Shown in pieces: positions 44,220 through 64,000 of a stretch of DNA of 64,000 nucleotides; the first letter of the stretch is position 1; every line of letters starts with the position of its first letter. The notes beneath the pieces are model-generated. The model made no database searches and had not been told where the DNA came from. It saw only the letters and a list, made by a program, of their open reading frames with translations. Both the position numbers and the translations under genes were made by a program. Source of the DNA: a virus; the IMG/VR virus record IMGVR_UViG_3300018080_000015, positions 24,187 through 88,186 of that record. One strand, given 5' to 3'.

Positions 44220-44234
44220 GATCTACCTCCCTAA

Positions 44235-44529: not shown

Positions 44530-44573
44530 AGACGTACCCAAGATACTACCCGGCGCGGCGGAAGTCCAGGACG

Positions 44574-44993: not shown

Positions 44994-45005
44994 TGAAGTG
45001 TCCTC

Positions 45006-45917: not shown

Positions 45918-45920
45918 CGA

Positions 45921-47060: not shown

Positions 47061-47788
47061 CAGTTCTCCTCCCAGTACTCAATCAGGAAGATGAGGGCAG
47101 CGGCGTCGGTTTCGAGGCCCTGCTCGTTCATGATGGTATCGAACGTCTCCTCGACCCGCTCATGCTCCGCTGGAGAGAAAAAAAGAGTGAGGCGCTTGAT
47201 TGAGCCGTCCACGGTCGGCCCTGCGTCCGAGCTCGTGTGTGCGGCCCCCTCGAGCTCTGTGTCCCCCGGGTCTTGCTCCCCACCCTCGTCGTCGTCTTCC
47301 TCAGACTCGTCTTCCTCCTCGTCCTCCTCAGATTCGTCTTCCTCCTCGTCCTCCTCGCAGAAGTACTGCTCGATGAGAGCATCCACTTCGTCCTGATCGA
47401 ATCCTGTGCCCTCGACCGAGCCCGCGATCTCATCCAGCTCCCGCAACATGTCCGCGAGGAGCTCACCGTCATAGGTCGCATGATCAGAGGTCTTGTTGTC
47501 GGCCAAGAGCAACCGACGCTGCATCGCTTCCGGCAGGTCCACGTACTGCACAGGCAGACGCGAATAGCCGAGCTCGACCGCTGCACGGAAGCGGGTGTTG
47601 CCGATTAGGACCGTTCCCAGGTCCGTCGGCTTCTTTCCCTTTTGAACGATGAGACTGCCCCAGAACCCATTCTCAGCGATGGACTCTTTGGTCCGCCGCA
47701 GGTCGCCGCGCCGAGGATTTCTCGGGTGGGTCTGCAGTCGATCCACCGCAACCATGTTCACCTGAGCCTTTGTCACGAACTCACTCAT
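47060..47788 (-). CDS. ParB N-terminal domain protein with acidic linker
   Basis: 'HPRNPR...SIAENGF...LIGNTRFRAA..LG...LADNKT'. Confidence 0.85.
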   Translation of the reverse strand: MSEFVTKAQVNMVAVDRLQTHPRNPRRGDLRRTKESIAENGFWGSLIVQKGKKPTDLGTVLIGNTRFRAAVELGYSRLPVQYVDLPEAMQRRLLLADNKTSDHATYDGELLADMLRELDEIAGSVEGTGFDQDEVDALIEQYFCEEDEEEDESEEDEEEDESEEDDDEGGEQDPGDTELEGAAHTSSDAGPTVDGSIKRLTLFFSPAEHERVEETFDTIMNEQGLETDAAALIFLIEYWEEN

Positions 47789-48434
47789 ATGCTTTCTCCT
47801 GCCACTTGATATACGACCACTCAGCATCGAGGTCGCCGATGATTTGGTATGCACGACTGAGCGGGATTCCCGTCTCTCGATTCAGCGCGTAGAGATTGCG
47901 TTTCTCGGCGCGGAGCATATCAGTCATCACCATCGCGTGCTCGAGCCCACACTCCCACGCCGCCTGGTAGAGCTTCTCGACGAGCTCTACCTCTGCCGTG
48001 AGACGCTCGGGCGAAAACGATCTTGAAGACCAGTCCAACGCGTCGAGCCACACGTCGGTAGACGCAGGCTGTATCTCAACCCACTCCCCGTCGGTGCCGC
48101 GCGTGCACTGTGAGAAGAGATCCGCCCGGTCCGCGGGACGGACTGAGAGCCACCTGTAGATGGAGATGACCTTGTTGCGGAGGCTTTGCAAGACCAGATC
48201 CTCGAGCTCCTCTAGAGGTAAGTCAGCCCCATAGTAGCTCAGGACACGAACAATCGTCTCGAGCCCGACGGATCTGAGGTCGTCGTAGCTCATGAATGGG
48301 TTTCCGTCGCTGTATCCGCGACTGAATCTACGAGCGCTATGCTCTACAAGCTTAATCAGCCTCCTCATGAGGCTCGGTTTCGCGTACACATTCACCTCCC
48401 TGGGCGATAAGACCACACGCCCGGTGTACACCAA
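47781..48434 (-). CDS. Sigma-70-like transcription factor (putative)
   Basis: Region-2-like 'LVEHSARRF...YDDLRSVGL...LRNKVISIYR' and C-terminal HTH 'LNRETGIPLSRAYQI'. Confidence 0.6.
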   Translation of the reverse strand: MVYTGRVVLSPREVNVYAKPSLMRRLIKLVEHSARRFSRGYSDGNPFMSYDDLRSVGLETIVRVLSYYGADLPLEELEDLVLQSLRNKVISIYRWLSVRPADRADLFSQCTRGTDGEWVEIQPASTDVWLDALDWSSRSFSPERLTAEVELVEKLYQAAWECGLEHAMVMTDMLRAEKRNLYALNRETGIPLSRAYQIIGDLDAEWSYIKWQEKAYE

Positions 48435-48876
48435 GGTTTTTCTCCTCGTCAGTCTCGAGGAGTTCGTTGCACTGCGTACAACGAAGTTGAATGATGCGGA
48501 CCACGACTCTGGGCCGCCACTTCCACGGGTTGAGAATCACGTCTGCGAGCATTCTTGTCACCGTGGTATCTACCACAGCGTCCACCTTCACGCCGAACTC
48601 GTCGACGACTCCCAGTGGGACGAACTCTTCGGGGTGCTCGTTCCACTGCCCCTTTGGACCCTCGTATGTGCTCACTAGACGCTGACCACCTACGGTATAG
48701 AAAAGACACACAAGCTGACCGTCAGTGCTCGCGCCGAACTCCACGATGATGACCCCATTGTGCCTGAGCGGATCGAACACGCCGTCGAAGACAGACTTCG
48801 CGGGCTCGACTCGAGCTTGCTCGGACGTAGGGTACTGGACACCGTCGATTTCAAGATCGGCGAAGCGACTGCTCAT
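48352..48876 (-). CDS. Hypothetical protein
   Basis: ORF with SD; C-terminal CxxC. Confidence 0.5.
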   Translation of the reverse strand: MSSRFADLEIDGVQYPTSEQARVEPAKSVFDGVFDPLRHNGVIIVEFGASTDGQLVCLFYTVGGQRLVSTYEGPKGQWNEHPEEFVPLGVVDEFGVKVDAVVDTTVTRMLADVILNPWKWRPRVVVRIIQLRCTQCNELLETDEEKNLGVHRACGLIAQGGECVRETEPHEEAD

Positions 48877-48881
48877 CTCTT

Positions 48882-49592
48882 TTATCCTCCCGATACCTTT
48901 GATCCTACTTCATTCGGATCAGTGCTGTCAACCGCATTATTGCTTGATTTGCGCGTTTTTTGATAGGCTCTGAAGCCCTCTTTCGCAAGGACTGCGAGCG
49001 CCCGATCCGTCTTCCGAATCTGCGTTTTTGGTTTGCGCTTGCCGGGGAGATACAGGCTCCACGGTTTGCGGACACTCTCCCGACCCAGCTTCGCCACGAG
49101 GCGGCCATCGAGCTCGAGCTTGATCCACTGCTTCGTTTTGGTGAGCTTGGCCCCCGTCAGCTTTCGCCAAATCGTGAAGATACGGGCTGCCCGTTTCGGC
49201 GACTCCTCCAGGCAGGCCTTCCAGACGTCCTCTACGAACTCCGGCGTGGCGTAGACTGTCCCCTCCCGGCGCACGCCACCCTCCGCGGGAGCGAACTCGA
49301 GCCGCAGCGCCCCATCGGCCACGAGCGTCACGAGGTACAGGTTCTGCGGGCTCGGCCCGGAGCGTCGGGTCGTCCAGTTCTGGATGGTGTTCGTGCCCCC
49401 AGCCTTCCCCTCATCTCGAGCGTACCAGTCGAGCGCCTGACACAGCTCCACGTAGGTGCAATAGCGCCTCGTCCAGTGCTCGCTCTTCGGCCCGGTGATC
49501 CGGTGCACCGCATCCAGTGCGGCCCTGCGGTCGGTTTCTCGCTGGGCCTGTTCACGCTCCTGAAGGAGCTCTGAGACTAGCTGGTCAAGCAT
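48882..49592 (-). CDS. Hypothetical protein, possible HTH
   Basis: Strong SD; 'TIQNWTTRRSGPS' resembles an Xre-type HTH. Confidence 0.55.
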   Translation of the reverse strand: MLDQLVSELLQEREQAQRETDRRAALDAVHRITGPKSEHWTRRYCTYVELCQALDWYARDEGKAGGTNTIQNWTTRRSGPSPQNLYLVTLVADGALRLEFAPAEGGVRREGTVYATPEFVEDVWKACLEESPKRAARIFTIWRKLTGAKLTKTKQWIKLELDGRLVAKLGRESVRKPWSLYLPGKRKPKTQIRKTDRALAVLAKEGFRAYQKTRKSSNNAVDSTDPNEVGSKVSGG

Positions 49593-49611
49593 GATTTTCC
49601 TCCTCTCCTGG

Positions 49612-49643
49612 AATCGCTACCACATGCCTCCGGTGCGTGTCAA
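49612..49643 (-). promoter_or_regulatory. Possible sigma70-type promoter
   Basis: TTGACA-18 nt-TAGCGA between the terminator and the SD of 48882-49592; -10 element non-canonical. Confidence 0.3.
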
Positions 49644-49658
49644 GATCACATGCATCTG

Positions 49659-49706
49659 AAAAATGAAAAGCCCCCAAGGAACGTCCCTGTCCCCTGGGGG
49701 CTTTTC
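49659..49706 (-). terminator. Intrinsic terminator closing the early-gene array
   Basis: GAAAAGCCCCCA...TGGGGGCTTTTC stem with T-run on the minus strand. Confidence 0.8.
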
Positions 49707-49726
49707 CCGCGTGGAGGCACACACGG

Positions 49727-50422
49727 TCACTCGATGTCCTTGAGCCTGGTGATTCGACACCGCTTCCACCCGCGCGGCTCGACCCTGAACCTCGTGGTCT
49801 GAACACCCGACACCTTAGCGGATGCGCTGATCACCCTCTCGGCTTCGGCGACGGTGCAATCGTCGCATTCGATCGCCTCGCCTACCTGGATGGTCTCTGC
49901 GCCGCAAGGAGACACATAAGGCCAAAGGCTCGTGCTCCCTGTCAAGAGGTAGAGCGTCGTCGGCAGCTCGTCAACGTCCCTATAGAAAGCATCCCCACAG
50001 GAACCAATCAGCCGTCCATCTGTCGTTTTGCCCGTAACCGTAATCATCTCGCCACACACAGTGCAAACCTCGTGCGGCCCGTCCCACACCCTGATGGTGT
50101 GGTGCCCCTCCGCGTCGATCCACACCTCCACTGGAGTGGTGAGGTTCGAGCACGTGTTCACGTTCTGAATCGCTGTCATGAACACGTCTCGAAGATCGGG
50201 CAAGTCCTCCTGTATCTCCCCTCCCGCGTATTCTCCGGGCTTGAGAAACGACTGCAGGAAGCAACTTGCCACGAGCTCCCGGTACTCGTCGTCTGGCATG
50301 ACCGAAAGGGCCATCCACACTGAGTAGGGTCGCTCCTTCTCCTCGTCTGTGTACTCGTCGCGGTCGTAGGGCTCTCCCTCGGCGAAGAAGAACTCTGGTG
50401 AGAACGATAGTTCAAAACTCAT
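49727..50422 (-). CDS. Hypothetical early protein
   Basis: GGGAGG SD; last gene before the terminator. Confidence 0.65.
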   Translation of the reverse strand: MSFELSFSPEFFFAEGEPYDRDEYTDEEKERPYSVWMALSVMPDDEYRELVASCFLQSFLKPGEYAGGEIQEDLPDLRDVFMTAIQNVNTCSNLTTPVEVWIDAEGHHTIRVWDGPHEVCTVCGEMITVTGKTTDGRLIGSCGDAFYRDVDELPTTLYLLTGSTSLWPYVSPCGAETIQVGEAIECDDCTVAEAERVISASAKVSGVQTTRFRVEPRGWKRCRITRLKDIE

Positions 50423-50439
50423 CGTTTCCTCCCTGTTGT

Positions 50440-50847
50440 TCGCTATGCTCTCGGTGACGCGCTCCGGCTACTGGTTAGATGATTCGGCTAAAGCCGACGC
50501 TCCTGATGACGTCTTCGATCGGAGTCTTGGCGTCCACGGTCTCACCCTGACGGTCCGAGCCCAAGAGAACGCCGTTGCCGGCGAAGAAATCCTGGTGGGC
50601 GCCTTCGAGCGTGAAGCCGTAGCGGACTGGCTTCAAGAGCCCCTCGTCGTCGACGTACACGGTATCCCTGTTGGGGAACATGTGCGCCAATGCGACGCAA
50701 CTAAACTTGCCCGCTCCGTAGATGTGCCTGATGTCGCTGTCGGGAAATGAAGTCTCCACGACCCTCTGGTTCTTGGCATCGATGATAATTGCTCTGATAC
50801 TCATGGTGTGCATCCTTGGTTGGAGCGCGCCACTGAGAGCATAGCGA
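50440..50847. repeat. Gene-flanking inverted repeat A (arms 50440-50465 / 50822-50847)
   Basis: tcgctatgctctcggtgacgcgctcc versus reverse complement tcgctatgctctcagtggcgcgctcc, 24/26. Confidence 0.95.
50475..50804 (-). CDS. DUF3846-like early protein
   Basis: 'VYVDDEGLLK...FAGNGVLLG.D..GET'. Confidence 0.65.
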   Translation of the reverse strand: MSIRAIIIDAKNQRVVETSFPDSDIRHIYGAGKFSCVALAHMFPNRDTVYVDDEGLLKPVRYGFTLEGAHQDFFAGNGVLLGSDRQGETVDAKTPIEDVIRSVGFSRII

Positions 50848-50855
50848 GGTTTGGT

Positions 50856-51601
50856 GTTGTACGCACAACCACGGCGGCCACTGTTTCTACTTAATAGTCA
50901 AAATGTGAGTAGGTCGACGCCTCGCACTCCCCGGCACAATCTGTACCGCAATGCGGGCACACCCACTCCTGCTCTTCCGCGAAGATCGCGTCTTGGCACT
51001 TCTGGCAACACCCGCTGATGCGGTACTCCTGCCTGGAGATCTCGTCCTTGAACTCCGTCGCCAGCCCGCCACACCACGTGCACAAATCCTTTCGGATCTG
51101 CCCGCGGCGAGACTTGCCAATCACGAAGTCGAGGAACTGTTCGACTCCTTCGCTCTTCTTACTTGGTTCTGCCACGACCCCTCCACACATTGAAGTATGA
51201 GAACTGCTTGGTTCCGCACGTGCACGGGTGTGGTGGGACGATTGTCCCGTCACTGAAGAGACACCATCGCGAGTGTTTTTTCACTCGGACTGTCTCCTCT
51301 CCCGGACGCCGGAGCAAAACGGCCTGTTTCTTCGTCATATCACGAGCACTCTGACGCCCCCACTCATGTGAGGGACGAGCGGCACCCAAATGCCGTCAAT
51401 GCGGACTTCCGCATCGTCTGAGAGCACCACCTCATCGCCGCCGATTCCGAAGCACGGCACTGGCCGCACGTAGTAGCGACGCTTTCCGTCGATCTCCTCG
51501 AAATCTGCTCGAGCGCTTAGAACGTCCACGAGTCTGTCTGTTGATCCTATCCATCCCATGTTTGCCTCCACTGTGGTGGCCGCCGTGGGTGTACGTACAA
51601 C
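50856..51601. repeat. Gene-flanking inverted repeat B (50856-50881 / 51576-51601)
   Basis: gttgtacgcacaaccacggcggccac versus gttgtacgtacacccacggcggccac, 24/26. Confidence 0.95.
50891..51559 (-). other. Three small overlapping early ORFs (50891-51175, 51159-51338, 51335-51559)
   Basis: SDs and overlapping starts/stops; 50891-51175 has CTWC and CQKC motifs. Confidence 0.6.
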
Positions 51602-51662
51602 TACTGTTGATGACATCCGGTGCGGTACCTCTCACGAGAACGTGGTCCCCGTGGAGACCGTT

Positions 51663-52090
51663 TTATATCACGAACACCTCTGCGCTTGTGGCCTCGGACC
51701 AATCGCTCTGTTCATCCCAATAGATCTCATTAGCGATGTTGTCGAGCGCCTGGATCAATGAGCCTTTCCAAACCGCTTTACCGTCATCATCGAAGAACTG
51801 CACCTCAAGCTCATTGAGCTCCGCGACTATGTCGCTGAGGACTGCAACACGAGCTGACATACTCCAACTCATACTGCGGCCCTGATCGCTTCCTTGAGCG
51901 TCTTGAAGCGGCCTTTCTGAACTGCGGGAGCGGCGTCGGGATCGTTGGAGCCTGGTGTGAGCCAAAGCACCTTATAGAGATTCCACACCCACAGTCCCTT
52001 GCGCACGAACCATTTACGATTCGGCGACACGTACGAACCTCTCCTGCTTTTCGTCCACCCGTATCGGATGGTCTCTTTCTGTTCCGTCAT
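51663..52090 (-). other. Two small coupled early ORFs (51663-51872, 51869-52090)
   Basis: SD AGGAGG at 52090; ATGA overlap. Confidence 0.6.
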
Positions 52091-52105
52091 GATGCCTCCT
52101 ATGCA

Positions 52106-52628
52106 TCGAGGGCACGACGCAAAGCACGAGCCTGTTTTACTCTACTTGCCTGTTGGCATGCGGAGCCGGCGAAGCGTCGTCAACTGTGCCTCCCTATCTA
52201 GTAGGAACCACAAAGCCGACCGATAAGCCGCCTCCTGGGTTGAGGGAGGACCATCGAGAACGTGGTCCACCACGTCAACCACCGTCTCCACGCACTGTGC
52301 CATCGTGGCCGTCTTGAAGAACTCCTCAAGACCGCTGAAGGTCCCTCCTTCGTCAAGCGAATCGATGAGCCTCTGCATGCTCGCGTCAAACCACGGGCGC
52401 TCCCCTATCTCGAATCCGCGACCGTGTTTCTTTCTGGAGCGAAGCCATCGAAACTTGTCCGCAAGCCCCTCTGGTATTCCTCCCGGTTTGGGTCCTACCG
52501 GGAGAGAGTGCCCGAGCTGAGTCGGAATCTCCCGGTTGAATACTACTGACTTGTGAGTAATCTTCTCTTCCATGTTACCTCCCTTGGTACTGTAACGGGG
52601 AGGCTCGTGCTTTGCGGCGCGCCCTCGA
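52106..52628. repeat. Gene-flanking inverted repeat D, nested in C (52106-52133 / 52601-52628)
   Basis: tcgagggcacgacgcaaagcacgagcct versus tcgagggcgcgccgcaaagcacgagcct, 26/28. Confidence 0.95.
52142..52573 (-). CDS. Hypothetical early protein
   Basis: SD AGGGAGGT. Confidence 0.65.
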   Translation of the reverse strand: MEEKITHKSVVFNREIPTQLGHSLPVGPKPGGIPEGLADKFRWLRSRKKHGRGFEIGERPWFDASMQRLIDSLDEGGTFSGLEEFFKTATMAQCVETVVDVVDHVLDGPPSTQEAAYRSALWFLLDREAQLTTLRRLRMPTGK

Positions 52629-52698
52629 CTGAATCGTCAGTGAGAGGCACCGCACTGGATGTCATCGGATGTGCTTCCGCTTGGGACCGCGAGCGGTT

Positions 52699-53145
52699 TT
52701 ACATTTTCGCTCGCTCTGTTCTGAGATGTCGAATGTCTTCGATGATTGATTCCCTGTCCGACTCTACAAGATGCAAAGCCGAACCAACCCTGCGCACCCA
52801 CTCTTGTCCTCGAATCACGTCCCGCTCTGGAGTATGCGGATGCCCCATAAAGAGGTCCGCTGTGTGCTGAACACCCCTCATTGCGGCCTCACGCTGTGTC
52901 GTCGAACCGAACGTTGAAGCTCGCGCCGTGAGATTCCCTTTCCGGAGATAAACGTATGTCCACCCACCGAGATAAGGCTGAACCACAAGCGCCAAGATGT
53001 CCCCAATTCCTCGGACGATCAATAGATTGTCTGAGGAGTCGAGCTTGTAGAGCTCCACGGCGGCCTGACTAAGTGCTGCCTCGCGGGCGAGTTTGAGCGT
53101 CCTGTCTTTTTTCACGATCGGGCCGATTCTGAATTCCCGTGCCAT
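52699..53145 (-). CDS. Hypothetical early protein
   Basis: SD GGAGGT. Confidence 0.6.
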   Translation of the reverse strand: MAREFRIGPIVKKDRTLKLAREAALSQAAVELYKLDSSDNLLIVRGIGDILALVVQPYLGGWTYVYLRKGNLTARASTFGSTTQREAAMRGVQHTADLFMGHPHTPERDVIRGQEWVRRVGSALHLVESDRESIIEDIRHLRTERAKM

Positions 53146-53161
53146 AGTTACCTCCACTCTT

Positions 53162-53589
53162 GATGTGAACATCACTGTGGCCACCACGATTTCTAGTCTA
53201 GCGCAACATCCCCCGCGCGGGAGGATCACTGCGCTTCGTACGGCGAAAAGCCTCACCCTTGAGCCATCCTGTGGTCTCGTATCGATCGGAGAGTAGATAC
53301 CTCCGCGCACGCGCAACTGCCTCGTTTTTGTCCACGCACGCCACCACGAACCGAACCGGATTGAATCTGAGGTTCGTCTTTGCGAGCGCATTCGCAAACT
53401 CTTGCGCGATACAATGCCTGATGTCGAACGCTATCCCCTCCTCGTCGGATAGATCGTCCCACTGTTCCAAGTGAGCGCGAACGATCGTTTCGAGGGGGAG
53501 AGACGCTATCACTCTGGCGATTAGATCGAAGTGTTTCTTTGTCATCGTCTGTGCCTCCTTTTTGTGGTGGCCACAACGATGCTCACATC
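53162..53589. repeat. Gene-flanking inverted repeat F, nested in E (53162-53187 / 53564-53589)
   Basis: gatgtgaacatcactgtggccaccac versus gatgtgagcatcgttgtggccaccac, 23/26; all three differences are G-U pairs in the mRNA. Confidence 0.95.
53198..53545 (-). CDS. Hypothetical early protein (MTKKHF...NLRFNPVRFVVAC)
   Basis: SD AAGGAGG; motif resembles small phage early proteins. Confidence 0.65.
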   Translation of the reverse strand: MTKKHFDLIARVIASLPLETIVRAHLEQWDDLSDEEGIAFDIRHCIAQEFANALAKTNLRFNPVRFVVACVDKNEAVARARRYLLSDRYETTGWLKGEAFRRTKRSDPPARGMLR

Positions 53590-53672
53590 CACTGGGGCTC
53601 GCGGCCCCAAGTGGAAGCACATCCTTCGGTTAGCTCGCCAAGCTGTGCGCCCGTCCGGGCGCGAGCGAAGGG

Positions 53673-55007
53673 CTACTTCTTGCCCTTCTTGCTGGTCTTC
53701 TTCTTCCCTCCTTTCTTGGTCTTCTTACTGGTCTTCTTCTCTCCCTTCTTGGCCTTCGCGGGCTGCTCCGCGATCTCCCCGGCGATAGCCCTATTCCCGA
53801 CCTCCACGGGCTGCTCGACGTTGACGTTTCCGCCCGGAACCTGTCTGAGCGGCTTGAGCTGCACGAGCCCATAGTTCTTGGACGCGCTATGCCGCGCGAG
53901 GAAAATCGCTGCGGCTTGCCCGCCCATGAGGACATCCTTGCCTGCCTTGGTGGGAATCCACCCCATGTTGCACTTCGTGCAATCGAGCATCCTGAGTACA
54001 TCTTCGTCCGGAGAATCCGGGAGAAGCTTGTATCCCTCGCACTCTGTGCACGGCACCTCGAGCGGATCTGAGAAGGCTGCCGTGGAACGCTCATACTCAT
54101 CGCGGAGAGTCTTGAGCTGTTTCTGGGCCTTTTTGAGCTCCCGCTCAAAAATCCGCCCCTCCTTGGTCTTGGCTGCCTTGAGGTTTCCCTTCTCGGTGTA
54201 GAACTCGCTGGTCTTCTTCTTCTTGCCCTTGGACGTCTTGTCCTTCTCTGCGCTCTTGGACTTCTTGGGCTTGAGGCCCTCATCATCCTTGGCCAGAGCT
54301 TCGTCGAGGGCGACCTTGAGCCGCCGACACTTGGCCTGCTGATCGTCGGTCTTGAGCCTGGCGAGCTTCGCCTCTTGCTCTGCCTTCGACCATTCCTTGT
54401 AGACCTTGGTCCGCTTGCTCTTGCCTTCTGCCTTCTCGGCCAATTTCTCGGCCTGGGCCTTGGCCTCCTTGGCCGTCTTCACGAGAGCTCTGAGCTCCGC
54501 ACGTTCGTCCTCGAGCTCCTGCTCGAGTTCCTTGACGGATTTCTCGGGTTCGGAAGCCTCTGCCTCTTCCTCGGACTCTTCGTCCTCGTCATCTGGCTCG
54601 TCTTCTTCTTCCTCCTCCTCCGCTTCTGCGTCCTCGAAGTCCGACTCGTCGTCATCATCCTGCTCTTCGTCTTCTTCCTCCTCCTCGAAGTCTTCTGATT
54701 CCTCCTCGTCATCGTCGTCCCACTCGAAGCTGTCGTCCTCTTCGTCTTCGTACTCCAGCCAATGCTCGAGAAGAGCCTCGAGCGGCTCGCCCTTGGAGAT
54801 CTGAGCTTGGGTGTAGAGCCCAATCTCATCTCCCTCCTGGTCGAGCGCTGCGATCTTGCCCTTCGTCGTCTTGCTGGGGACCAACATGCCGAGTTCATCG
54901 TTGTCTTCCTCGGGAAGGACGACTCTGTAGCCTTTGATGCTCTTGTCGGGCACCACGTGGACCACTGAACCGAGAACCTTGCGCTTGATCACTTTCTTCT
55001 TCGCCAT
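53673..55007 (-). CDS. Acidic/basic low-complexity protein with Zn finger
   Basis: Long D/E tract, coiled coil, CTEC/CTKC and Lys-rich tail. Confidence 0.7.
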   Translation of the reverse strand: MAKKKVIKRKVLGSVVHVVPDKSIKGYRVVLPEEDNDELGMLVPSKTTKGKIAALDQEGDEIGLYTQAQISKGEPLEALLEHWLEYEDEEDDSFEWDDDDEEESEDFEEEEEDEEQDDDDESDFEDAEAEEEEEEDEPDDEDEESEEEAEASEPEKSVKELEQELEDERAELRALVKTAKEAKAQAEKLAEKAEGKSKRTKVYKEWSKAEQEAKLARLKTDDQQAKCRRLKVALDEALAKDDEGLKPKKSKSAEKDKTSKGKKKKTSEFYTEKGNLKAAKTKEGRIFERELKKAQKQLKTLRDEYERSTAAFSDPLEVPCTECEGYKLLPDSPDEDVLRMLDCTKCNMGWIPTKAGKDVLMGGQAAAIFLARHSASKNYGLVQLKPLRQVPGGNVNVEQPVEVGNRAIAGEIAEQPAKAKKGEKKTSKKTKKGGKKKTSKKGKK

Positions 55008-55049
55008 GCTGTGTACCTCCCTTACGGGTTCACGAACGACCCACCCACT

Positions 55050-55764
55050 GCGGGTCGACACCGCGCAAGCCATCACCTGCGCTGCCTCCTACCGCGGAGG
55101 CAATCCTCGAGCGGCACGACGTCTCTCCTGATCGTAGTCGGTGTCACGAGCTGCACCCGGCAACTGCTCCACCATTTTCTCGACCAAGGCCTGAGAGTCG
55201 CACCGCACGAAGAAGTTGCGTCCTTTGGCCTCGAACCACAACTTCTGAATGCACCAACCGTGACCGCACTCGCACTCACCGTATTCCCTGCGGACGACGA
55301 CCTCGACGGTCGAGATATCGGCATCCTCTGGGTCTTCGGCGTCCACATCATAGATGTAGTAGCGAGCGCGGACGTCTGGCTCATCGCCATGGTCCGCTTC
55401 GCATGCAACACACTGCCACATATGCTTTCTCCGGGACATCACCATCCTCCGTTCTCGCCTGAGAGGAACATCTCCCACACTTTCTGAGGCTCACCGCCCA
55501 AGCACGGGATCGTGCCTGGGTCGCCTCTATCTTCTTCGGTGGCTTCGAGAGCCTGCTGGAGCGTGAGCTCCATGCATTCCTCGTCGCCCTCCTGAGCGAA
55601 GTAGATAGCCTCTTGAAAGAGGTAGAGGCTCTCATAGCGATCTGCGTGGAATTGAACGTCGTCCGGATTGAGCTGTTTCATGCGCTCGAAGAGCTTGGAC
55701 ATCACGTACCCCCATTGTAAGGCCCGGACTGAGCCGGGCGGTTGATGGATTGCGCGGTGCCCGC
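55050..55764. repeat. Gene-flanking inverted repeat H, nested in G (55050-55080 / 55738-55764)
   Basis: gcggg[tcga]caccgcgcaagccatcacctgc versus gcgggcaccgcgcaatccatcaaccgc; 4-nt bulge. Confidence 0.8.
55089..55702 (-). other. Two coupled early ORFs (55089-55439, 55439-55702)
   Basis: TGATG overlap and SDs. Confidence 0.6.
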
Positions 55765-55821
55765 GAACTGTGCTCGGATGGACGCACAACTTGGCGAACT
55801 AACCTGGTCGCTTGCTTCACA

Positions 55822-56201
55822 CACTTGCCGTGTCGCGCGCACCCAACCACTACCTGTTAGGGTAGTCGTTCATGGGAAACGCGCGGTTATCACGATTCCC
55901 GACGCACTCTGTCATGGGAGCGACGTTCATGGACCCACAAACGAGGCACACGAACAACTGCTTCCCACTCGGAGAGCATCGATGAATCGGGACATACTGA
56001 CCCGGATGCGGATCCGATGGGCTATCCTCGAAAGGAACCGTCGCCCTGGGGACGAGCAAGCCCCGACGGGCCAATCCGTCCACGATTTTAGCTACGAGCT
56101 GCGGCTCGCGTTCACAAAACTCCGGGTCCGCAAACCTTCTGATGTCGAGCTTCATTTGACTCATGACGTCCTCCTGTTGGGTGAGCACGACATGGCAAGT
56201 G
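55822..56201. repeat. Gene-flanking inverted repeat I (55822-55847 / 56176-56201)
   Basis: cacttgccgtgtcgcgcgcacccaac versus cacttgccatgtcgtgctcacccaac, 23/26. Confidence 0.93.
55850..56164 (-). CDS. Hypothetical early protein
   Basis: SD AGGAGG. Confidence 0.6.
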   Translation of the reverse strand: MSQMKLDIRRFADPEFCEREPQLVAKIVDGLARRGLLVPRATVPFEDSPSDPHPGQYVPIHRCSPSGKQLFVCLVCGSMNVAPMTECVGNRDNRAFPMNDYPNR

Positions 56202-56204
56202 GCT

Positions 56205-56593
56205 GGTTGAACTCCTTTCGTGTGCGCTCTCTATGCTGTTATCTCATGTCCTGTTCGAAACCTTGCGCGATGGCGGACTGTTCGAATTCTTCGAGTTTGT
56301 CCCACCAATGACGCGCCTTGTCATCGTTCTGGAGCGACCGTCGCCCACAAGGGTACTCGACGGTGCCGTTACTGCCATCTCCTCCCAACGGAGTCGGGTT
56401 CTTGGATTCTGCAAGAATCCTCCAAAGCTTGGAATAGAGCTCACGCCACGACTTTCCTTCTGGCATGAACCTTTCGTAATCCACGCACTCTGCGACTTCA
56501 TCCGCTGTCCAATACTCAAGCCCTTCTGGCATTTTCACGCTCATAACTCACCTCCCTACTGCACTCGAGAGCGCACACGGGAGGAGTTCAACC
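56205..56593. repeat. Gene-flanking inverted repeat J (56205-56231 / 56567-56593)
   Basis: ggttgaactcctttcgtgtgcgctctc versus ggttgaactcctcccgtgtgcgctctc, 25/27. Confidence 0.95.
56239..56544 (-). CDS. Hypothetical early protein
   Basis: SD GGGAGGTG. Confidence 0.65.
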   Translation of the reverse strand: MSVKMPEGLEYWTADEVAECVDYERFMPEGKSWRELYSKLWRILAESKNPTPLGGDGSNGTVEYPCGRRSLQNDDKARHWWDKLEEFEQSAIAQGFEQDMR

Positions 56594-56605
56594 TGCTTGC
56601 TTCGC

Positions 56606-56927
56606 TTGACAACAACGCACCCTCCGCGCCCCTTACTGACGCGGTGACCGCTAGATGAAACCGAGAAGCATCATCCAACTGGGCACTCCATGCTCACACA
56701 CGCCGTCTGGTTCTACCCAACACCCGCAAGAAGTGTAGCAACCCGACTCCCTTGCCCACGCTTCGAGCTGTTCGATGTCCGGCTTCGGCTCGACGATATC
56801 GACCCGACGCTGTTTCCCGCCCATTCGAAGAATGATGAAATCGGCGTGACTGGCGTCCTCTGCGAAAGTACTCATGCTGTTCCTCCGTCCTGTTGATTAA
56901 GGGGTCCGGAGGATGCGCTGTTGTCAA
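56606..56927. repeat. Gene-flanking inverted repeat K (56606-56635 / 56898-56927)
   Basis: ttgacaacaacgcaccctccgcgcccctta versus ttgacaacagcgcatcctccggacccctta, 26/30. Confidence 0.93.
56651..56875 (-). CDS. Small Cys-rich phage protein (C..VEPDG.C.HG.PSW)
   Basis: Motif recurrent in small phage proteins; SD GGAGG. Confidence 0.7.
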   Translation of the reverse strand: MSTFAEDASHADFIILRMGGKQRRVDIVEPKPDIEQLEAWARESGCYTSCGCWVEPDGVCEHGVPSWMMLLGFI

Positions 56928-57524
56928 AGACACGTCACAAGGCGCGAGGCTAGGATTATAGTGAAATAACCGAGCCCGACCTGGGCTCGGTCGGGACTAG
57001 CGCTTCAAGCTCCGCGGGGATTCGAATCTGACTCAACACTTCCCATCGAAGCGCGGTAGGCATCGCCGCCCAAAGCTCACTGCGGTAGTGATGCTCGGAA
57101 TCCATCGGAGCGCAATCACTGATGTAGAAATCCACGTAGTGATAGACGGCGAGCCACATCTGCTTTCTGCGTAGAAACGTGGCTCGAGAGCGACTCACCT
57201 CCTGGTTCTTTTCGCTCTCGAGTGTCCACACTCCACACGGTCCGACTGAGTAATACGGCTCGTCTTCCGTCGTTTCAAGCTGCTCTTCAAGCAACCCATC
57301 CACCGCGGCCCCCTTGACGAGATCCTGGATGCTTTCCACCATCCATTGGTGTTCCTCGTCTGTGAGCTTGAACGCCCGGTCGCGCACGTTCCTGATCTTG
57401 TATCGGACATGCGCGATGTAGACGCCATCGCCCTGGAATTCCGTGGTGTCGGGAAATTCTCGTTTCAATGTTGGTCTGGTCATAGTGCCTCCACAAAACT
57501 CGCGCCTTGTGAGCTGCCTTTGAC
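56923..57524. repeat. Gene-flanking inverted repeat L (56923-56948 / 57499-57524)
   Basis: gtcaaagacacgtcacaaggcgcgag versus gtcaaaggcagctcacaaggcgcgag, 23/26. Confidence 0.92.
56956..57483 (-). CDS. Hypothetical early protein
   Basis: SD GGAGG. Confidence 0.65.
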   Translation of the reverse strand: MTRPTLKREFPDTTEFQGDGVYIAHVRYKIRNVRDRAFKLTDEEHQWMVESIQDLVKGAAVDGLLEEQLETTEDEPYYSVGPCGVWTLESEKNQEVSRSRATFLRRKQMWLAVYHYVDFYISDCAPMDSEHHYRSELWAAMPTALRWEVLSQIRIPAELEALVPTEPRSGSVISL

Positions 57525-57527
57525 CTC

Positions 57528-57867
57528 TGGTTGGCTCCTTTGCTCGCGCCACAAGTCGAGCTTGTGACGGAGGTTAACGAAAGTCTTTCGGACTGGGACC
57601 GAATCCTCCGATCCTACCGGGACAATTCGGCGCGTAGGATCGTGAGATGGTACGGCCCGCTTTGATAGAATCAAAGCGGGCTGCGCCGTCTCCGTACACC
57701 CGACACGATTCCTCAACCCCAGCCCATACACACGCGTTGACAATAGCACCCGATACTTCGGGCACTATCCAACGCGCTTCGCGCGCCTTCGCGCGCCTTC
57801 GACGCTTGCGCTTGCGTTTCGCCATGCTTTCTCCTTGGTTTGTGGAGCGAGCGAAGCAAGCCAACCA
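57528..57867. repeat. Gene-flanking inverted repeat M (57528-57554 / 57839-57867)
   Basis: tggttggctcctttgctcgcgccacaa versus tggttggcttgcttcgctcgctccacaa with internal loop. Confidence 0.85.
57574..57825 (-). CDS. Arg-rich hypothetical early protein
   Basis: SD AAGGAG; first gene of the array. Confidence 0.55.
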   Translation of the reverse strand: MAKRKRKRRRRAKAREARWIVPEVSGAIVNACVWAGVEESCRVYGDGAARFDSIKAGRTISRSYAPNCPGRIGGFGPSPKDFR

Positions 57868-58401
57868 TATCTCGTATACACTCCGATCCTACTACCCACC
57901 AAAGGGGAGGATACTCGGAGCTACGTTTGTCAAATATGCGGTCAAACGGTGCACAACGTGAGGGAAGCACTAGGGGAGCGCTAGCGGCTTTCGAGAGGCG
58001 CCCCTCAAGCATCCCATTGCGACCACCATACGGGGAGGGAGACTTAAAGCCTTACCAACCTTGCGCGCCCGAAGCACGCCGCTCAACTTCCATGTCGCGG
58101 CTCGCGCGAAGCCTTGTCTCTCCACGCCACCTTGATATTGGTTAGCTCTACTAATCGCTAGATGTACCCTAAGATGTCAACGTTGTGCGGCTCTAACCGT
58201 GTGCTCGCACGGTCGCCCCCCTCCGAGGGGAACACGAGCCCCGTCGCGGGTAGTATCCCGCTCCCAAGCGGTTACTTGGGACCCGATCGTTGATCCACGA
58301 TCCGTGCCGATTACACACATTCGGTGCATGAAAAGCACCAAGTCAAGCAATGGTGCGGGTTTGCGCGTACCTCGCGAGGCTTTTCACGCATCGAATGTAT
58401 G

Positions 58402-58523
58402 ACAAGGTGTCACGGTTTTTCGACCCCACTTGTAAACGCGCGTTCACACGCCGATTTCAAGGCCCCACAAGGCCCACAAGGCGCTTGACACGAATGCGGA
58501 GGATGACAAGGGACAAGGCCTTG
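58402..58523. repeat. Cluster of short ACAAGG direct repeats in non-coding gap
   Basis: ACAAGG at 58402, 58467, 58476, 58506 and 58513, plus TCAAGG at 58457. Confidence 0.55.
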
Positions 58524-58605
58524 CTCGCGGTCTCGGAGCGTGCGAGAGACCTTGCCGGCCATGCCCACCCGCACCCGCGCACCCACGCACCCGCGAGGCG
58601 CTGAG

Positions 58606-59559
58606 CTACCGACGGCGAGCGAGCCAGCTCGAGAACACGCTCCCGCTCTCGCGCGGGGCACTGGAGAGGAGCTCGTCGTAGGTGTACTCAGTCGCACGCT
58701 CGACCCTCCGGCGTAGGTCAGGCACGGAGTCGGGGTCTTCGTCCCCAGTGAAGTGCACGATGCGTACCCGCTTGCCGACCTCCAGGAGCGCGAGCGCGAG
58801 CTTGCGGGCCTCCTGGGTAGCATCACCGTCGTAGGCGACATACAGGAGCTCCTGTGGCGCTCCTACGAGGCGCTCGAGCTGGGGCTCGGAGAAGCTCTTG
58901 CCGAACGTGGCGACAGCCTGGGGACCGAGCGCACACGCGGCGGGGATTCCCTCAGCGATGAAGATGTAATCGTTGGCCGGAGAGAGCGCCTTGTCAGCGT
59001 TGAAGAGGAGGCTCTTGCGGCGGGTGCCGGGAGCAGACATCCAGCGCTTGGACTTCTCCGTGGCGTCCATGTAGCGGGCCTGATAGCCCTTGTAGCCACC
59101 GTCGTATAGCGGGAAGATGGCTGAACGACGGAGACGCACGTACTTCTTTGTAGTGCCTACGTCCCGCCCGGTGCCGTCCACCACAGTGAGGAAGACGGAG
59201 CCTTCGTAGTTCGAGCCGCAGACGCCGAACTCTCGGATTTGCTCTGCAGTGAACCCGCGTCGGACGAGGTATCTGAATGGGGCGCTGTTGGGCCTCAATG
59301 GGGAAGCCTCAATCTGCTCGAGCGTGGGCGGGAGCCACGAGAGCTCTTGCTTAGGCCCGACGCTCGGGATGTAGCCGATTTGCGCGAGGCGGAACACTGA
59401 GCCCTTGTACTGGCACCTCATGCAGTAGAAAGCACCAGACTGCGCGTTGACGTAGAGCTTCGGAGCCCCACACTCGCCGCAGTGAAAGAGCATCTCGCGC
59501 GGGTCGGTGTTGAGCGCCCGCCCGAAGAGCTCCACTGCGATGTCACGCGCGCGACTCAT
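58606..59559 (-). CDS. DNA primase (Zn ribbon + TOPRIM)
   Basis: CGEC...CMRC; 'YQAR'; TOPRIM 'IAEG', 'VAYDGD', 'DPD'. Confidence 0.88.
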   Translation of the reverse strand: MSRARDIAVELFGRALNTDPREMLFHCGECGAPKLYVNAQSGAFYCMRCQYKGSVFRLAQIGYIPSVGPKQELSWLPPTLEQIEASPLRPNSAPFRYLVRRGFTAEQIREFGVCGSNYEGSVFLTVVDGTGRDVGTTKKYVRLRRSAIFPLYDGGYKGYQARYMDATEKSKRWMSAPGTRRKSLLFNADKALSPANDYIFIAEGIPAACALGPQAVATFGKSFSEPQLERLVGAPQELLYVAYDGDATQEARKLALALLEVGKRVRIVHFTGDEDPDSVPDLRRRVERATEYTYDELLSSAPRESGSVFSSWLARRR

Positions 59560-59770
59560 GCTCTCCCGGTCTCGCACACACTGGACAATAGCAGCCTGGT
59601 CCCATCAGTATCGCGAAGAGCCCAATGATGTACCCCCAACCGTGATCTGCGTGGGCTTTCTCGCACGCACGCAACTCCGGCGCAGCTCCACGACCGACGT
59701 GAAGCTCAAGAGTACAACCACAGCTGTCGCACTCCAACGTGGCATGCTGCTTCTTCATCGTAACCGGCAT
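59543..59770 (-). CDS. Small Zn-ribbon protein
   Basis: CDSC...CPVC; SD. Confidence 0.5.
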   Translation of the reverse strand: MPVTMKKQHATLECDSCGCTLELHVGRGAAPELRACEKAHADHGWGYIIGLFAILMGPGCYCPVCARPGEHESRA

Positions 59771-59793
59771 ATTCCTTCTCCTGTTTTCGGGGA

Positions 59794-60003
59794 TGCGACC
59801 GGAACTTACTCAGCTTTGCGAGCCATGCACGATCGTATTTTGGCTTTTGCGAAGCAGGGAGCAACCGAAGCTTGCGACCCTTTTTCGCCCAGCGAAAAAT
59901 AACAAAGATAGGATCGTGCAACTCCCAGGACGTTGGGTGTGTCCTGGAAGGGACGAGCAATTCACACGCACGGCGTATCGCCGCACCTAAGCTACCGGTC
60001 GCA
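59794..60003 (-). ncRNA. Candidate structured RNA immediately 3' of the tRNA-like element
   Basis: Closing stem 59794-59808 / 59988-60003 enclosing several internal stems. Confidence 0.45.
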
Positions 60004-60004
60004 A

Positions 60005-60077
60005 AGCGAGGGATGGGAATCGAACCCACAAACCGCCAGGGAGGTTGATTGAGACGGCGCACCTTTGCTTCCCTCGC
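60005..60077 (-). tRNA. tRNA-like element with non-canonical D arm and anticodon loop
   Basis: GCGAGGG/CCCTCGC acceptor stem, canonical GTGGG-TTCGATT-CCCAT T arm, 3-bp D stem, 5-bp anticodon stem with 15-nt loop. Confidence 0.65.
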
Positions 60078-60246
60078 AAGCTGGGTGGTTCCAATCGGAG
60101 TGAGGCCCACCCAATACATCCGACTCGAGCGGGAGCCGGATTGGCTCATACTACATCGTCCTGCCCTCCATCGTTTGAGCATTTTTCGTCCTAAAAACTG
60201 TCCCGGACCACCTCGGCGTGGTCTCTTCTCTCTTCTACGGGAACGC

Positions 60247-60612
60247 CTACTCTGCGGAAACCGTTTCGCGCCACTCGATCCCAAGCTCGAGCAGCGTTAC
60301 TCCGAGCATAGCCTCGATTCTACCCAGCCGCTCCTCGACGCGATCCCAGGCATCCGCCTCGTGCTCGAAGCACAATGCAGTCGCCACGGACCATCCGTCT
60401 TCGTGCATCTCCGGATCACGCTCCCGTATCAAGGAAAGGCGCTTGCGGCACGCCTCTCCACTGACAGCAATATCGCGCGAGGCCATCCACCCGGCCACCG
60501 CGCTCCACCAGTCCGCCTTCTTGCCGAAGGTCTCACGCAGATCCACGAGGCACTCCACGGCCTCCAACAGAACCTGCTCGTCCTCATCCGTCCACGAGTG
60601 TCTCGTCGCCAC
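60247..60612 (-). CDS. Myb/SANT-like (RsfA-type) DNA-binding protein
   Basis: 'SWTDEDEQVLLEAV...WSAVA....SGEACRKR'. Confidence 0.6.
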   Translation of the reverse strand: MATRHSWTDEDEQVLLEAVECLVDLRETFGKKADWWSAVAGWMASRDIAVSGEACRKRLSLIRERDPEMHEDGWSVATALCFEHEADAWDRVEERLGRIEAMLGVTLLELGIEWRETVSAE

Positions 60613-60771
60613 TGTCTACCTCCTTTCGTCGCAGCCTCGACGCGCACAGACGAAATGCCTGCGCAAGCGCCACCCATTGTCGTCTGTCCCAATACTCCAC
60701 GAGAGAGCCGCCCCTATCAGCCTCGACAGCCCACTCGTCGAACTCCCGAGCAATGACCTCCAACTGCTTTA

Positions 60772-60972
60772 TCACCTCAGCCCCTTCGCCTTCGCGATCC
60801 ACTCAGTCACCTCAAGTGTACCGACGTCGTTCTTGTGCTCGATGTCTGTCTCCCCATACACGATTTGTGAGCGAGGAAACCAGACCTCTTCTCCGTCGGG
60901 CATCTCGACCAGAAGCGCACGCTCTGTAGATGCGACGACCATGCAATCGTAGAACGTCACTGTGTCACTCAT
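60772..60972 (-). CDS. Small phage protein
   Basis: 'STERALLV...EEVWFPRSQI...VTEWIAKAKGL' motif recurrent in small phage proteins. Confidence 0.65.
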   Translation of the reverse strand: MSDTVTFYDCMVVASTERALLVEMPDGEEVWFPRSQIVYGETDIEHKNDVGTLEVTEWIAKAKGLR

Positions 60973-62281
60973 CGTCTTCGTCCTCCAGATCGAAATCGAG
61001 AGAGAATCCGTCTCCCTCCCAGGGGGAGACGATCATGTTGGTACACCCCATGTCCACGCCGAACATGAGCAGTCTGCGGGGTGGTCCCCACCGATTCTTC
61101 ATCCCGAAGATTCCAAACTGGCCCTCGGTCTCGAGCTTGTTCTTCTCGAGATGAATCGACCAGAAGCCGTCCAGGGCGTTCGACTTGCCTCCGGAGCCCT
61201 CGACCTGACCGAACTGCTCGATACCCTCCCATTGGCCCTTACCGGGCTGCGTGGCACCCCAACCGACGCATCCCATCTCTTCGATGATGCCGTGGAACTG
61301 AGCGTAGAGCCGAGCTTGGTCGACCCAGTAGTTGCCAGAGCCGGAGATGTCCGTGATGTTGAGCAGCTCGAAGTAGTCGAGGAACACGACGTCAGGCTTC
61401 GGGTCCAGCGAGCGGAGATAGGCGCCGACCTGGGTGATATCCATCGAGTAGGGGTAGAACTTCACGCAGAAGAGGTTGCCGCCCGCGCGCTCGATAGCCT
61501 TTCGAGCTCGCGCCAGTGATCTCTTGCCTTTGTCGGTCTTGAGCTCCCAGAGCGGGAGCCCGGTCGTGATCATGTCCGTCCTGGCGAAGATGGAGGCCTT
61601 CTTCATCTCGTAGCTGAGATAGACCACGTAGGCGCCTTGCTTCATCGCGTTCACTGCGAGGTTGTTCATCATGCGGGTCTTGCCAGCACCCTGCCCACCG
61701 ACAATCACCTCGAGCTCGCCGACAGCTGGGCCTCCGTCCGTCAACGCGTCCCAATCGTCGTAGCCTGTTAGCCAGCGGCGCCCGCGACCCATCGGGTCGT
61801 CCTTGTAGCGCTCGTCTGCATCCTCATCGAGCCATGTACCGTCGTCGACCGCAGACGAGGTTGTCTGCGCCCGAGAGACCGCCTTCATCGCCGCACCGCG
61901 GTCTCCTGCGTTCACAAGGTCCATCGCCTCGGCGATACACTTCTGAGCGTGCGCGAGCTCGATGAGATCCTTCAGTTCGTCCCCGTAGATCTTCTGCACT
62001 TCGTCTGTCGGGAGCTTGAAGGCGCGCTTGGCGAACTTCACACAGCGCTTTGCGTTGGCCTTGTGTTCGCTCCCGAGCTCTGTGACGAACGTGCGCTTGG
62101 ACGGTACGCGCCCCAGTTTGTCGAAGAGTCGGAGGAGGGTTCGCGTGCACCGCACAGCCGTCGGTGCCGCGAAGATATCCTCCGACACCATGGACCTGTG
62201 TTTCGAGAGAACGTCTGAGATAAGTAAGGCTGCGAAGAGCCGAAGTTGAAGGTGTAGCTCAACCTGAGCATCATCACTCAT
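60965..62281 (-). CDS. Replicative DNA helicase (DnaB/gp41-like)
   Basis: Walker A GGQGAGKT, 'YLSYEM', 'FLDY', 'ATQ', 'KNRWG'. Confidence 0.9.
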   Translation of the reverse strand: MSDDAQVELHLQLRLFAALLISDVLSKHRSMVSEDIFAAPTAVRCTRTLLRLFDKLGRVPSKRTFVTELGSEHKANAKRCVKFAKRAFKLPTDEVQKIYGDELKDLIELAHAQKCIAEAMDLVNAGDRGAAMKAVSRAQTTSSAVDDGTWLDEDADERYKDDPMGRGRRWLTGYDDWDALTDGGPAVGELEVIVGGQGAGKTRMMNNLAVNAMKQGAYVVYLSYEMKKASIFARTDMITTGLPLWELKTDKGKRSLARARKAIERAGGNLFCVKFYPYSMDITQVGAYLRSLDPKPDVVFLDYFELLNITDISGSGNYWVDQARLYAQFHGIIEEMGCVGWGATQPGKGQWEGIEQFGQVEGSGGKSNALDGFWSIHLEKNKLETEGQFGIFGMKNRWGPPRRLLMFGVDMGCTNMIVSPWEGDGFSLDFDLEDEDDE

Positions 62282-62463
62282 CGCCCTCCTCCTCCTCTCG
62301 CTCGTCCCTGAGCTCATCGAGGATTTGGTTGTTCAGTTCTTCTACGAGCGCCTCATAGATGCCAGATATTGACATCAACTCCCCGGGCGACATGCGCTCG
62401 AGTAGCTCCATCAGTTTCGCGTCGAACATTTCGTTTGTGACCCATGAATAGTCCTGACTCACC
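62274..62463 (-). CDS. Small hypothetical protein
   Basis: Coupled ORF between the two helicases. Confidence 0.5.
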
Positions 62464-62466
62464 TTT

Positions 62467-63993: not shown

Positions 63994-64000
63994 CGACGAA

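Follow-up and report, generated by a model that had tools for sequence, protein, structure and literature searches.

Why would the genes of a phage operon be enclosed, singly or in small groups, by long inverted repeats whose two arms can pair across them? This question is raised by positions 50440-57867 of a 64,000-nucleotide (nt) window, the whole stretch of DNA analysed here, from the genome of an uncultured sediment phage (IMG/VR record IMGVR_UViG_3300018080_000015). The genome is one contig of 88,186 bp with a 123-bp overlap between its ends, and the window is its last 64 kb; the record is graded as a virus with direct terminal repeats in IMG/VR and as 100% complete by CheckV. The block contains 13 inverted-repeat pairs (A to M), each with arms of 26-31 nt and each with its own distinct sequence. 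On balance, we think that these pairs form RNA helices of the leader-trailer type, as in rRNA operons, which the host RNase III would cut to give insulated messages with paired ends.

Thirteen stems enclose ten units of an operon

Ten of the pairs (A, B, C, D, E, F, H, J, K and L; 26-30 nt, 81-93% complementary) came from an inverted-repeat search, and pairs G, I and M were added by duplex folding of every spacer against every other spacer. In this folding, the best partner of every spacer was the spacer on the other side of a gene or gene group, and never the spacer itself. An independent scan seeded with 8-mers recovers A to G and I to L, and all 13 pairs that an earlier note on this DNA had placed here are present at their coordinates. 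The stems define ten top-level units that lie back to back (M, L, K, J, I, G, E, C, B and A) and together hold 17 genes. Inside three of them we observed a nested inner stem (H in G, F in E and D in C), each around the first gene or genes of the outer unit. The units are listed below with their arms, the open reading frames (ORFs) or genes that they enclose and, for some, the number of stem pairs present in the minimum free energy (MFE) fold described further on.

57529-57866, minus strand: unit M, 5' arm 57866-57840, 3' arm 57554-57529, with one bulge; encloses the ORF 57825-57574 (83 aa); 24 of 27 pairs in the MFE fold
56923-57524, minus strand: unit L, 5' arm 57524-57499, 3' arm 56948-56923; encloses gene 57483-56956 (175 aa)
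56605-56928, minus strand: unit K, 5' arm 56928-56898, overlapping the 3' arm of L by 6 nt, 3' arm 56635-56605; encloses gene 56875-56651 (74 aa)
56202-56596, minus strand: unit J, 5' arm 56596-56567, 3' arm 56231-56202; encloses gene 56544-56239 (101 aa)
55822-56201, minus strand: unit I, 5' arm 56201-56176, directly abutting the 3' arm of J with zero gap, 3' arm 55847-55822; encloses gene 56164-55850 (104 aa)
53628-55804, minus strand: unit G (outer), 5' arm 55804-55775, 3' arm 53657-53628, loop of 2117 nt; encloses unit H and gene 55007-53673 (444 aa); 29 of 30 pairs in the MFE fold
55058-55760, minus strand: unit H (nested in G), 5' arm 55760-55733, 3' arm 55085-55058; encloses the overlapping genes 55702-55439 and 55439-55089
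52667-53624, minus strand: unit E (outer), 5' arm 53624-53597, 3' arm 52694-52667; encloses unit F and gene 53145-52699 (148 aa)
53162-53589, minus strand: unit F (nested in E), 5' arm 53589-53564, 3' arm 53187-53162; encloses gene 53545-53198 (115 aa); 26 of 26 pairs in the MFE fold
51609-52666, minus strand: unit C (outer), 5' arm 52666-52640, directly abutting the 3' arm of E with zero gap, 3' arm 51635-51609; encloses unit D and the overlapping genes 52090-51869 and 51872-51663
52105-52629, minus strand: unit D (nested in C), 5' arm 52629-52601, 3' arm 52133-52105; encloses gene 52573-52142 (143 aa)
50856-51601, minus strand: unit B, 5' arm 51601-51576, 3' arm 50881-50856; encloses the overlapping genes 51559-51335, 51338-51159 and 51175-50891
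50440-50847, minus strand: unit A, 5' arm 50847-50822, 3' arm 50465-50440; encloses gene 50804-50475 (109 aa, DUF3846)

The arms avoid coding sequence and leave the ribosome-binding sites free

None of the 713 arm bases falls in coding sequence, although non-coding DNA makes up only 16.1% of the block, and the arms occupy 59.5% of its non-coding bases. The spacers between stem-separated units are 51-147 nt long, whereas the rest of the genome has a median spacer of 11 nt (by crude ORF calls), and neighbouring genes without an intervening stem overlap by 1-17 nt. Each spacer follows the same order of arm, short linker, arm and Shine-Dalgarno sequence (SD), with adjacent arms of different units placed -6 to 17 nt apart. 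In the ten innermost stems, 11-30 nt separate the 5' arm from the start codon, and no arm includes an SD. The contexts of I, L and F, for which the earlier note had described an arm followed by an SD that stays outside it, read as stated there. The loops range from 262 to 2117 nt; a single gene is enclosed by eight of the 13 stems, two genes by E and H, and three by B, C and G.

On the downstream side, the 3' arm begins 9 nt (A), 9 nt (B), 27 nt (C), 8 nt (D), 4 nt (E), 10 nt (F), 15 nt (G), 3 nt (H), 2 nt (I), 7 nt (J), 15 nt (K), 7 nt (L) and 19 nt (M) after the stop codon. These values reproduce 11 of the 13 distances given earlier exactly; G had been noted as 10 nt and H as 8 nt, and both differences come from where weak terminal pairs are counted. 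The stop codon was also said to be placed beside the start site of the same gene. If the stems form, the stop of each of the ten innermost units would indeed lie close to the SD and start of that unit, with 13-37 nt of unpaired RNA spanning the base of the helix. The description of the units as monocistronic fits eight of the stems and fails for the five that hold two or three genes.

The three nested modules share a geometry, with 7-14 nt from the outer to the inner 5' arm. Read in the sense RNA, the outer ends of stems E, F and C (52640-53624) also share their first four or five letters. The common geometry and these like ends are hints that the nested modules arose by duplication. None of the arm sequences is found again as a direct repeat; the direct-repeat families of the block consist of low-complexity Glu/Asp/Lys tracts of the 444-aa gene. 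No shared recognition site for a protein is therefore evident.

The array is not expected by chance

We scanned the 88-kb genome for repeats of at least 22 nt with at least 80% Watson-Crick pairing, 60-3000 nt apart. The scan returned 12 matches, of which 11 are pairs of the array with 23-26 matched positions each, while the twelfth is a marginal match of 22 nt with 18 matched positions inside coding sequence. In 30 dinucleotide shuffles of the genome, the same scan gave 0-3 matches each and never more than 22 matched positions, and in 80 unrelated phage loci of IMG/VR (431,872 nt) it gave 16 matches, with at most two per locus. Among the inverted-repeat pairs listed for the whole window, all those above 80% complementarity, other than local hairpins, fall in this block. 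The pattern of the array is far beyond chance.

Repeats of another kind were seen in several of the unrelated IMG/VR loci, namely perfect inverted repeats of 22-23 nt about 115 nt apart (L070-L073, 137-299; L059, 897-1054; L019, 347-505), which may enclose small structured RNAs or tiny ORFs.

Folding of the sense RNA

When the whole 7.5-kb sense RNA was folded with a pair span of up to 2400 nt, 12 of the 13 stems were present in the MFE structure, each with 19-29 of its pairs. Units K and I folded alone were more stable than 100 shuffles each (z = -4.79 and -5.53, respectively), and their MFE and centroid structures both contain the closing stem. The energies of the duplexes computed from the arms only range from -41 to -59 kcal/mol. 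The accessibility of the SD in the MFE fold is mixed.

We also asked which strand the pairing favours, leaving the bulged stem M out of the count. The 12 ungapped stems contain 295 Watson-Crick pairs, 18 G:U pairs in the sense RNA, 9 A.C oppositions (G:U in the antisense RNA) and 11 other mismatches, that is, 22-27 Watson-Crick pairs and 0-3 G:U pairs per stem. The arm duplexes are more stable as sense RNA in nine of the 13 stems, equal in one and weaker in three, with sums of -666.6 versus -643.2 kcal/mol. The strand test leans in the expected direction and decides nothing. Each stem carries 2-6 non-Watson-Crick positions in its centre and 7-8 perfect pairs at both ends, the perfect ends being due in part to how the arm ends are defined.

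A single transcription unit

All genes in 49,700-64,000 are encoded on the minus strand. Upstream, the array is preceded by a long leader that follows the primase gene (59577-58606, minus strand; the primase was recognised by PHROGs), and downstream it is followed by one further gene and a terminator.

57867-58605, minus strand: gene-free leader of ~740 nt, from the primase gene to the first stem (M)
49665-50422, minus strand: last gene of the transcription unit, 50422-49727 (231 aa), outside any stem, with the terminator

The terminator (49706-49665) is a strong intrinsic one with an 18-bp stem and a U tail; it lies directly past the 231-aa gene and is the only strong one on the minus strand. 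Within the array we found no strong minus-strand terminator, just four weak matches with 5-6-bp stems, all in coding sequence. Since no strong terminator lies inside the block and the 18-bp terminator closes it, the block can be regarded as a single transcription unit.

The promoter of the operon is presumably located in the ~740-nt leader, which could hold an early promoter or a replication origin. The leader (57867-58605) yielded no recognised promoter, no Rfam family and no leader-trailer partner. A scan with the sigma-70 pattern, from which the host promoter type may differ, gave four promoter-like sites versus 2.8 expected, none of them upstream of the array on the minus strand. An outermost helix around the whole array was not seen, as the leader pairs with the trailer or with the last spacer no better than shuffled controls do. 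ARAGORN detected no tRNA, and an Rfam scan of 44000-64000 (E <= 1) produced only two sub-threshold matches, neither of them ribozyme-related. No hammerhead or other ribozyme was found at the unit boundaries in this Rfam scan, and we rejected a ribozyme-processed operon as a candidate.

The E. coli boxA consensus, which may not be that of the host, was searched with up to three mismatches; it gave one 3-mismatch match in the leader (58441-58430), which is not a convincing boxA of the kind found in rrn leaders, and 43 matches over the window versus 26.8 expected. Another 3-mismatch boxA-like 12-mer (56921-56932, minus strand), a single weak match to the E. coli consensus, lies exactly at the overlap of the L 3' arm and the K 5' arm.

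A proposed model of processing by RNase III

A role of the stems in RNA can be argued because the arms are limited to one transcription unit, lie wholly outside coding sequence, leave the SDs free and have boundaries that follow the translational units. What the data show directly is the repeats, where they lie, how far they exceed chance and how they dominate the predicted fold by their energy; we infer folding of the sense strand, cleavage of the stems by RNase III and a stabilising effect of this cleavage on the messages. In this model, the region from 57867 to 49665 on the minus strand would be transcribed, probably early, as one long polycistronic RNA of orphan accessory genes. Each translational unit, which is either one gene or an overlapping, translationally coupled group, would be looped by a 26-31-bp helix between its flanking spacers, and the double-strand-specific RNase III of the host would cut each helix and free the unit as its own message. 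The inner half of the stem would keep the 5' and 3' ends of each freed message paired, and these paired ends may shield the message from end-dependent RNases and insulate the unit from the folding and decay of its neighbours. 5'-end-dependent RNases and 3' exonucleases need single-stranded ends. A processed message with paired ends should therefore be long-lived and unaffected by its neighbours. In the nested modules, the second sub-unit would be closed at the junction of the inner and outer stems, and after cutting its ends would be bridged by a short piece with two adjacent 5' arms.

RNase III needs roughly two helical turns (~20 bp or more), and the duplexes here, with 26-31 bp, are longer than that. 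The stems lie directly before and after the units on one transcript, as leader-trailer processing helices do. RNase III cleaves the leader-trailer helices of rRNA, which have 25-40 bp for 16S and 27 bp for 23S (PMC10250234), and in Bacillus subtilis it cuts long-range intramolecular mRNA duplexes of 10-36 bp with a 2-bp stagger and with cuts up to 505 nt apart (PMC11780869).

Several observations weigh against this model. The lean to the sense strand, with 18 G:U versus 9 A.C, does not reach significance (p = 0.12 in a two-sided binomial test), and at least one true mismatch stays in every stem as sense RNA. Stem H, the weakest pair with 81% complementarity, is missing from the global MFE fold. 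Five loops are longer than the 505 nt documented for mRNAs, the longest being 2117 nt, while rRNA helices span more. In icaR, RNase III cleavage of the duplex between the 5' and 3' regions destabilises the mRNA (PMC3868564), so stabilisation by cutting is not given. No usable relatives for covariation were found in IMG/VR, JGI metagenomes or GTDB genomes with the primase as query, alone or as an alignment, and the sole sequencing run that matches the phage is a DNA metagenome from sediment, probably its source, with no RNA run among the matches. Finally, a profile search of the complete genome shows that the phage encodes no RNase III (PF14622) and no double-stranded-RNA-binding domain (dsRBD, PF00035).

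The complete genome also contains no match to RtcB (PF01139) or to RNA ligase (PF09414, PF09511). With RNase III, dsRBD, RtcB and RNA ligase all missing from the phage, the enzyme must be that of the host, and given the lack of RtcB and RNA ligase matches nothing in the phage supports circularisation of the RNA. No T7-type RNA polymerase (PF00940) was matched in the genome, but the PF00940 control also matched nowhere, so this blank is uninformative.

Alternative explanations

The folding evidence (the MFE structure, the duplex energies and the z scores of K and I) would be the same if the helices formed in RNA and stayed uncut as structural insulators, which might give each ribosome-binding site (RBS) a constant context, hide the spacers from Rho loading or from RNase E/Y entry, or block exonucleases. 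The central mismatches and wobbles between perfect ends of 7-8 bp might indeed limit cleavage. However, 26-31 bp exceeds the two or so turns that RNase III generally needs, and escape from cleavage would need antideterminants. The stem lengths also lie within the 10-36-bp range mapped for in vivo substrates (PMC11780869), and we consider uncut insulators unlikely. Another proposal is that the helix holds the stop codon beside the SD of its own unit, so that a terminating ribosome, or a 30S subunit, initiates again on that cistron and more protein is made per mRNA, a mechanism that may be combined with trimming by RNase III. The 13-37 nt of unpaired RNA that join stop and start in the ten innermost units, the position of the SD outside every arm and the meeting of the ends of the second sub-unit at a three-way junction in the nested modules are all consistent with such a closed loop. 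The earlier note had held that the spacing itself argues for recycling, an argument that we do not uphold, as tight spacing is equally expected where arms fill 60% of short spacers. Moreover, five stems enclose two or three genes and thereby set the last stop next to the start of a different gene; a ribosome that reaches a stop codon only 2-10 nt before the arm must, given the size of ribosome footprints, melt the inner base pairs; and none of our computations supports recycling or re-initiation. No bacterial precedent was found in the literature; the search led only to icaR, where pairing of the 5' and 3' regions represses translation (PMC3868564). We give the closed loop only a slim chance of being the explanation, and it is just as improbable that what is left of the helix after trimming by RNase III, or the bridging fragment in the nested modules, holds the stop within 13-37 nt of its own RBS and so allows re-initiation and a burst of protein from few transcripts. 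Such a message would be the counterpart, made of RNA alone, of the closed loop of eukaryotes. Units with protected ends, the other option raised in the earlier note, seem plausible to us, and we favour them over recycling.

Could the repeats instead act in DNA, as recombination handles for cassette exchange or inversion, as hairpins in single-stranded replication intermediates, or as relics of insertion? Watson-Crick complementarity is symmetric between the strands and the bias of G:U over A.C is not significant; the enclosed orphans are typical of exchangeable accessory cargo, and the phage encodes an SbcCD-like nuclease, SbcCD-class enzymes being known to act on DNA hairpins. On the other hand, each pair is distinct without a common core site, Pfam and PHROG show neither a recombinase nor a transposase in the 17 genes of the units or in the gene after the array, and neighbouring arms -6 to 17 nt apart leave no space for target-site duplications. 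Inversion would set genes against the sole transcription direction of the operon, loops of 262-2117 nt are unfavourable for cruciforms, and the arms keep wholly outside coding sequence within one transcription unit. We find a role in DNA very unlikely. Two classes of mobile elements were rejected as candidates. The ends of transposons or miniature inverted-repeat transposable elements (MITEs) and invertible segments would be expected to show a shared terminal repeat, room for target duplications, or a transposase or recombinase domain in the array proteins, none of which was found. As for an integron cassette array, the arms in one spacer pair across genes and not together, a rejection made with no genome-wide search for an integrase and no test for the attC core motif.

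The enclosed genes and their surroundings

The 17 genes between 57,866 and 50,440 (minus strand) encode proteins of 59-444 aa and have GGAGG-type ribosome-binding sites. Sixteen of them show a coding-like pattern of GC content over the codon positions (GC1>GC2<GC3), and the first ORF (57825-57574) is flat. Informative PHROG or Pfam matches are missing for the 17 enclosed proteins and the following 231-aa protein, with three exceptions: DUF3846 in gene A (109 aa; 27.1 bits, just below the cut-off of 27.5 bits), phrog_19722, of unknown function, in gene 50891-51175, and a weak Anti-TRAP-like zinc-finger match in the 444-aa protein. For the 175-aa and 109-aa proteins, a search of 5.8 billion clusters found only the phage's own copy and no close relatives. 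The array genes look like typical fast-evolving accessory genes.

The 444-aa protein (53673-55007, minus strand) contains an Asp/Glu tract of ~90 residues and Lys-rich ends along with its weak match to an Anti-TRAP/DnaJ-like zinc finger. Possibly this early protein mimics DNA or acts like a chaperone; the acidic tract draws many unrelated low-complexity matches. The protein of the first ORF (57574-57825, 83 aa) opens with an Arg/Lys run and has no Pfam match. An Arg-rich first gene of an early operon recalls antiterminators of the lambda N type. This ORF also contains a local 23-bp hairpin (57644-57692) with 83% complementarity and a 3-nt loop, which lacks a U tail and is thus not terminator-like; it may have a regulatory function or serve as a local site for RNase III.

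In the genome as a whole, Pfam recognises an SbcCD-like nuclease and a family A DNA polymerase that carries a fused uracil-DNA-glycosylase (UDG) domain. Further Pfam assignments are a 5'-3' exonuclease, a DnaB-like helicase, two ParB-like proteins, and one protein each of the RecA-like and PAPS-reductase-like kinds. The nuclease combines SbcC-like and SbcD-like parts in one protein of 1038 aa (genome positions 624-3740, plus strand). It adjoins the 1040-aa family A DNA polymerase (genome positions 3766-6888, plus strand), whose UDG-superfamily domain is N-terminal.

Relatives

Searches of viral contigs with the 444-aa protein, the primase and the DNA polymerase as queries gave only one match of 26% identity, on a 4.8-kb contig (L001). 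Three homologues of the primase with 41-53% identity (P0004-P0006) were found only in Logan/ENA. No related cultured phage was found, as the nucleotide and protein matches are only low-complexity ones (the acidic tract) or helicases at 24% identity. The contigs of the one matching sequencing run, compared at 80% likeness, include one identical contig and no variants in the arms.

For gene A, an exhaustive HMMER search identified 1164 DUF3846 relatives. We aligned 50 of the 150 relatives listed and examined 80 IMG/VR loci, in none of which a repeat pair has both arms close outside the DUF3846 homologue (36 pairs, compared by eye). Since none of the 80 DUF3846 loci is bracketed, the bracketing belongs to this operon and not to the gene family.

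Implications and comparison with known systems

If the transcript is cut as we propose, the trick of the rRNA operon would be applied wholesale to protein genes, with one promoter and one terminator serving 17 genes and each unit clamped at its ends. If true, this would amount to a naturally occurring design that insulates and stabilises operon cistrons, with a bearing on early expression in phages and on synthetic operons. It would also explain how orphan accessory genes swap between phages with predictable expression, since a gene takes its arms along. The locus offers 13 independent natural substrates in one 7.4-kb fragment for long-range recognition by RNase III, for end protection and for closed-loop re-initiation.

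How do the stems compare with known cases of paired message ends? In eukaryotes, a closed loop is formed through the cap, eIF4E/4G, PABP and poly(A), and ribosome recycling has been proposed as a benefit; to our knowledge, this closed-loop mRNA has no bacterial counterpart. The ends are brought together in both systems, the bridge being protein there and RNA here, and the likeness is an analogy only. In T7, the RNase III of the host processes the early polycistronic transcript to separate messages that are stable. The T7 sites differ in that they are local hairpins in one spacer, whereas here the arms flank a gene and tie both ends of its message. Intercistronic hairpins of the T7 type were rejected as a candidate for this array because the two arms sharing a spacer belong to different pairs and the best duplexes span genes. 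In icaR mRNA of Staphylococcus aureus, the 3' untranslated region pairs with the SD, which blocks initiation and speeds decay (PMC3868564). The array would resemble icaR in that the pairing of mRNA ends makes a substrate for RNase III. Repression of the icaR type was rejected, as the arms stop 11-30 nt upstream of the start with the SD between arm and start.

The mRNA duplexes of B. subtilis are alike in having 10-36 bp over hundreds of nucleotides and in showing that such pairing forms in translated messages; they differ in being scattered single host sites that do not bracket every unit of an operon (PMC11780869). The rrn leader-trailer helices resemble the array in that they too consist of flanking complements (25-40 or 27 bp, compared with 26-31 bp here), occur several in series on one long transcript (PMC10250234) and close loops from hundreds to thousands of nucleotides. 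The differences are that the rrn helices enclose stable RNAs while translated genes are enclosed here, and that there are two or three of them, in contrast to 13 here, three of which are nested. No paper describing gene-bracketing long-range helices in phage operons was found within our coverage, which leaves out subscription journals. In summary, we read the array as a set of probable long-range processing helices of the rRNA type that here flank all units of an operon of phage accessory genes, in a dense example whose 13 stems include three nested modules with a common geometry.

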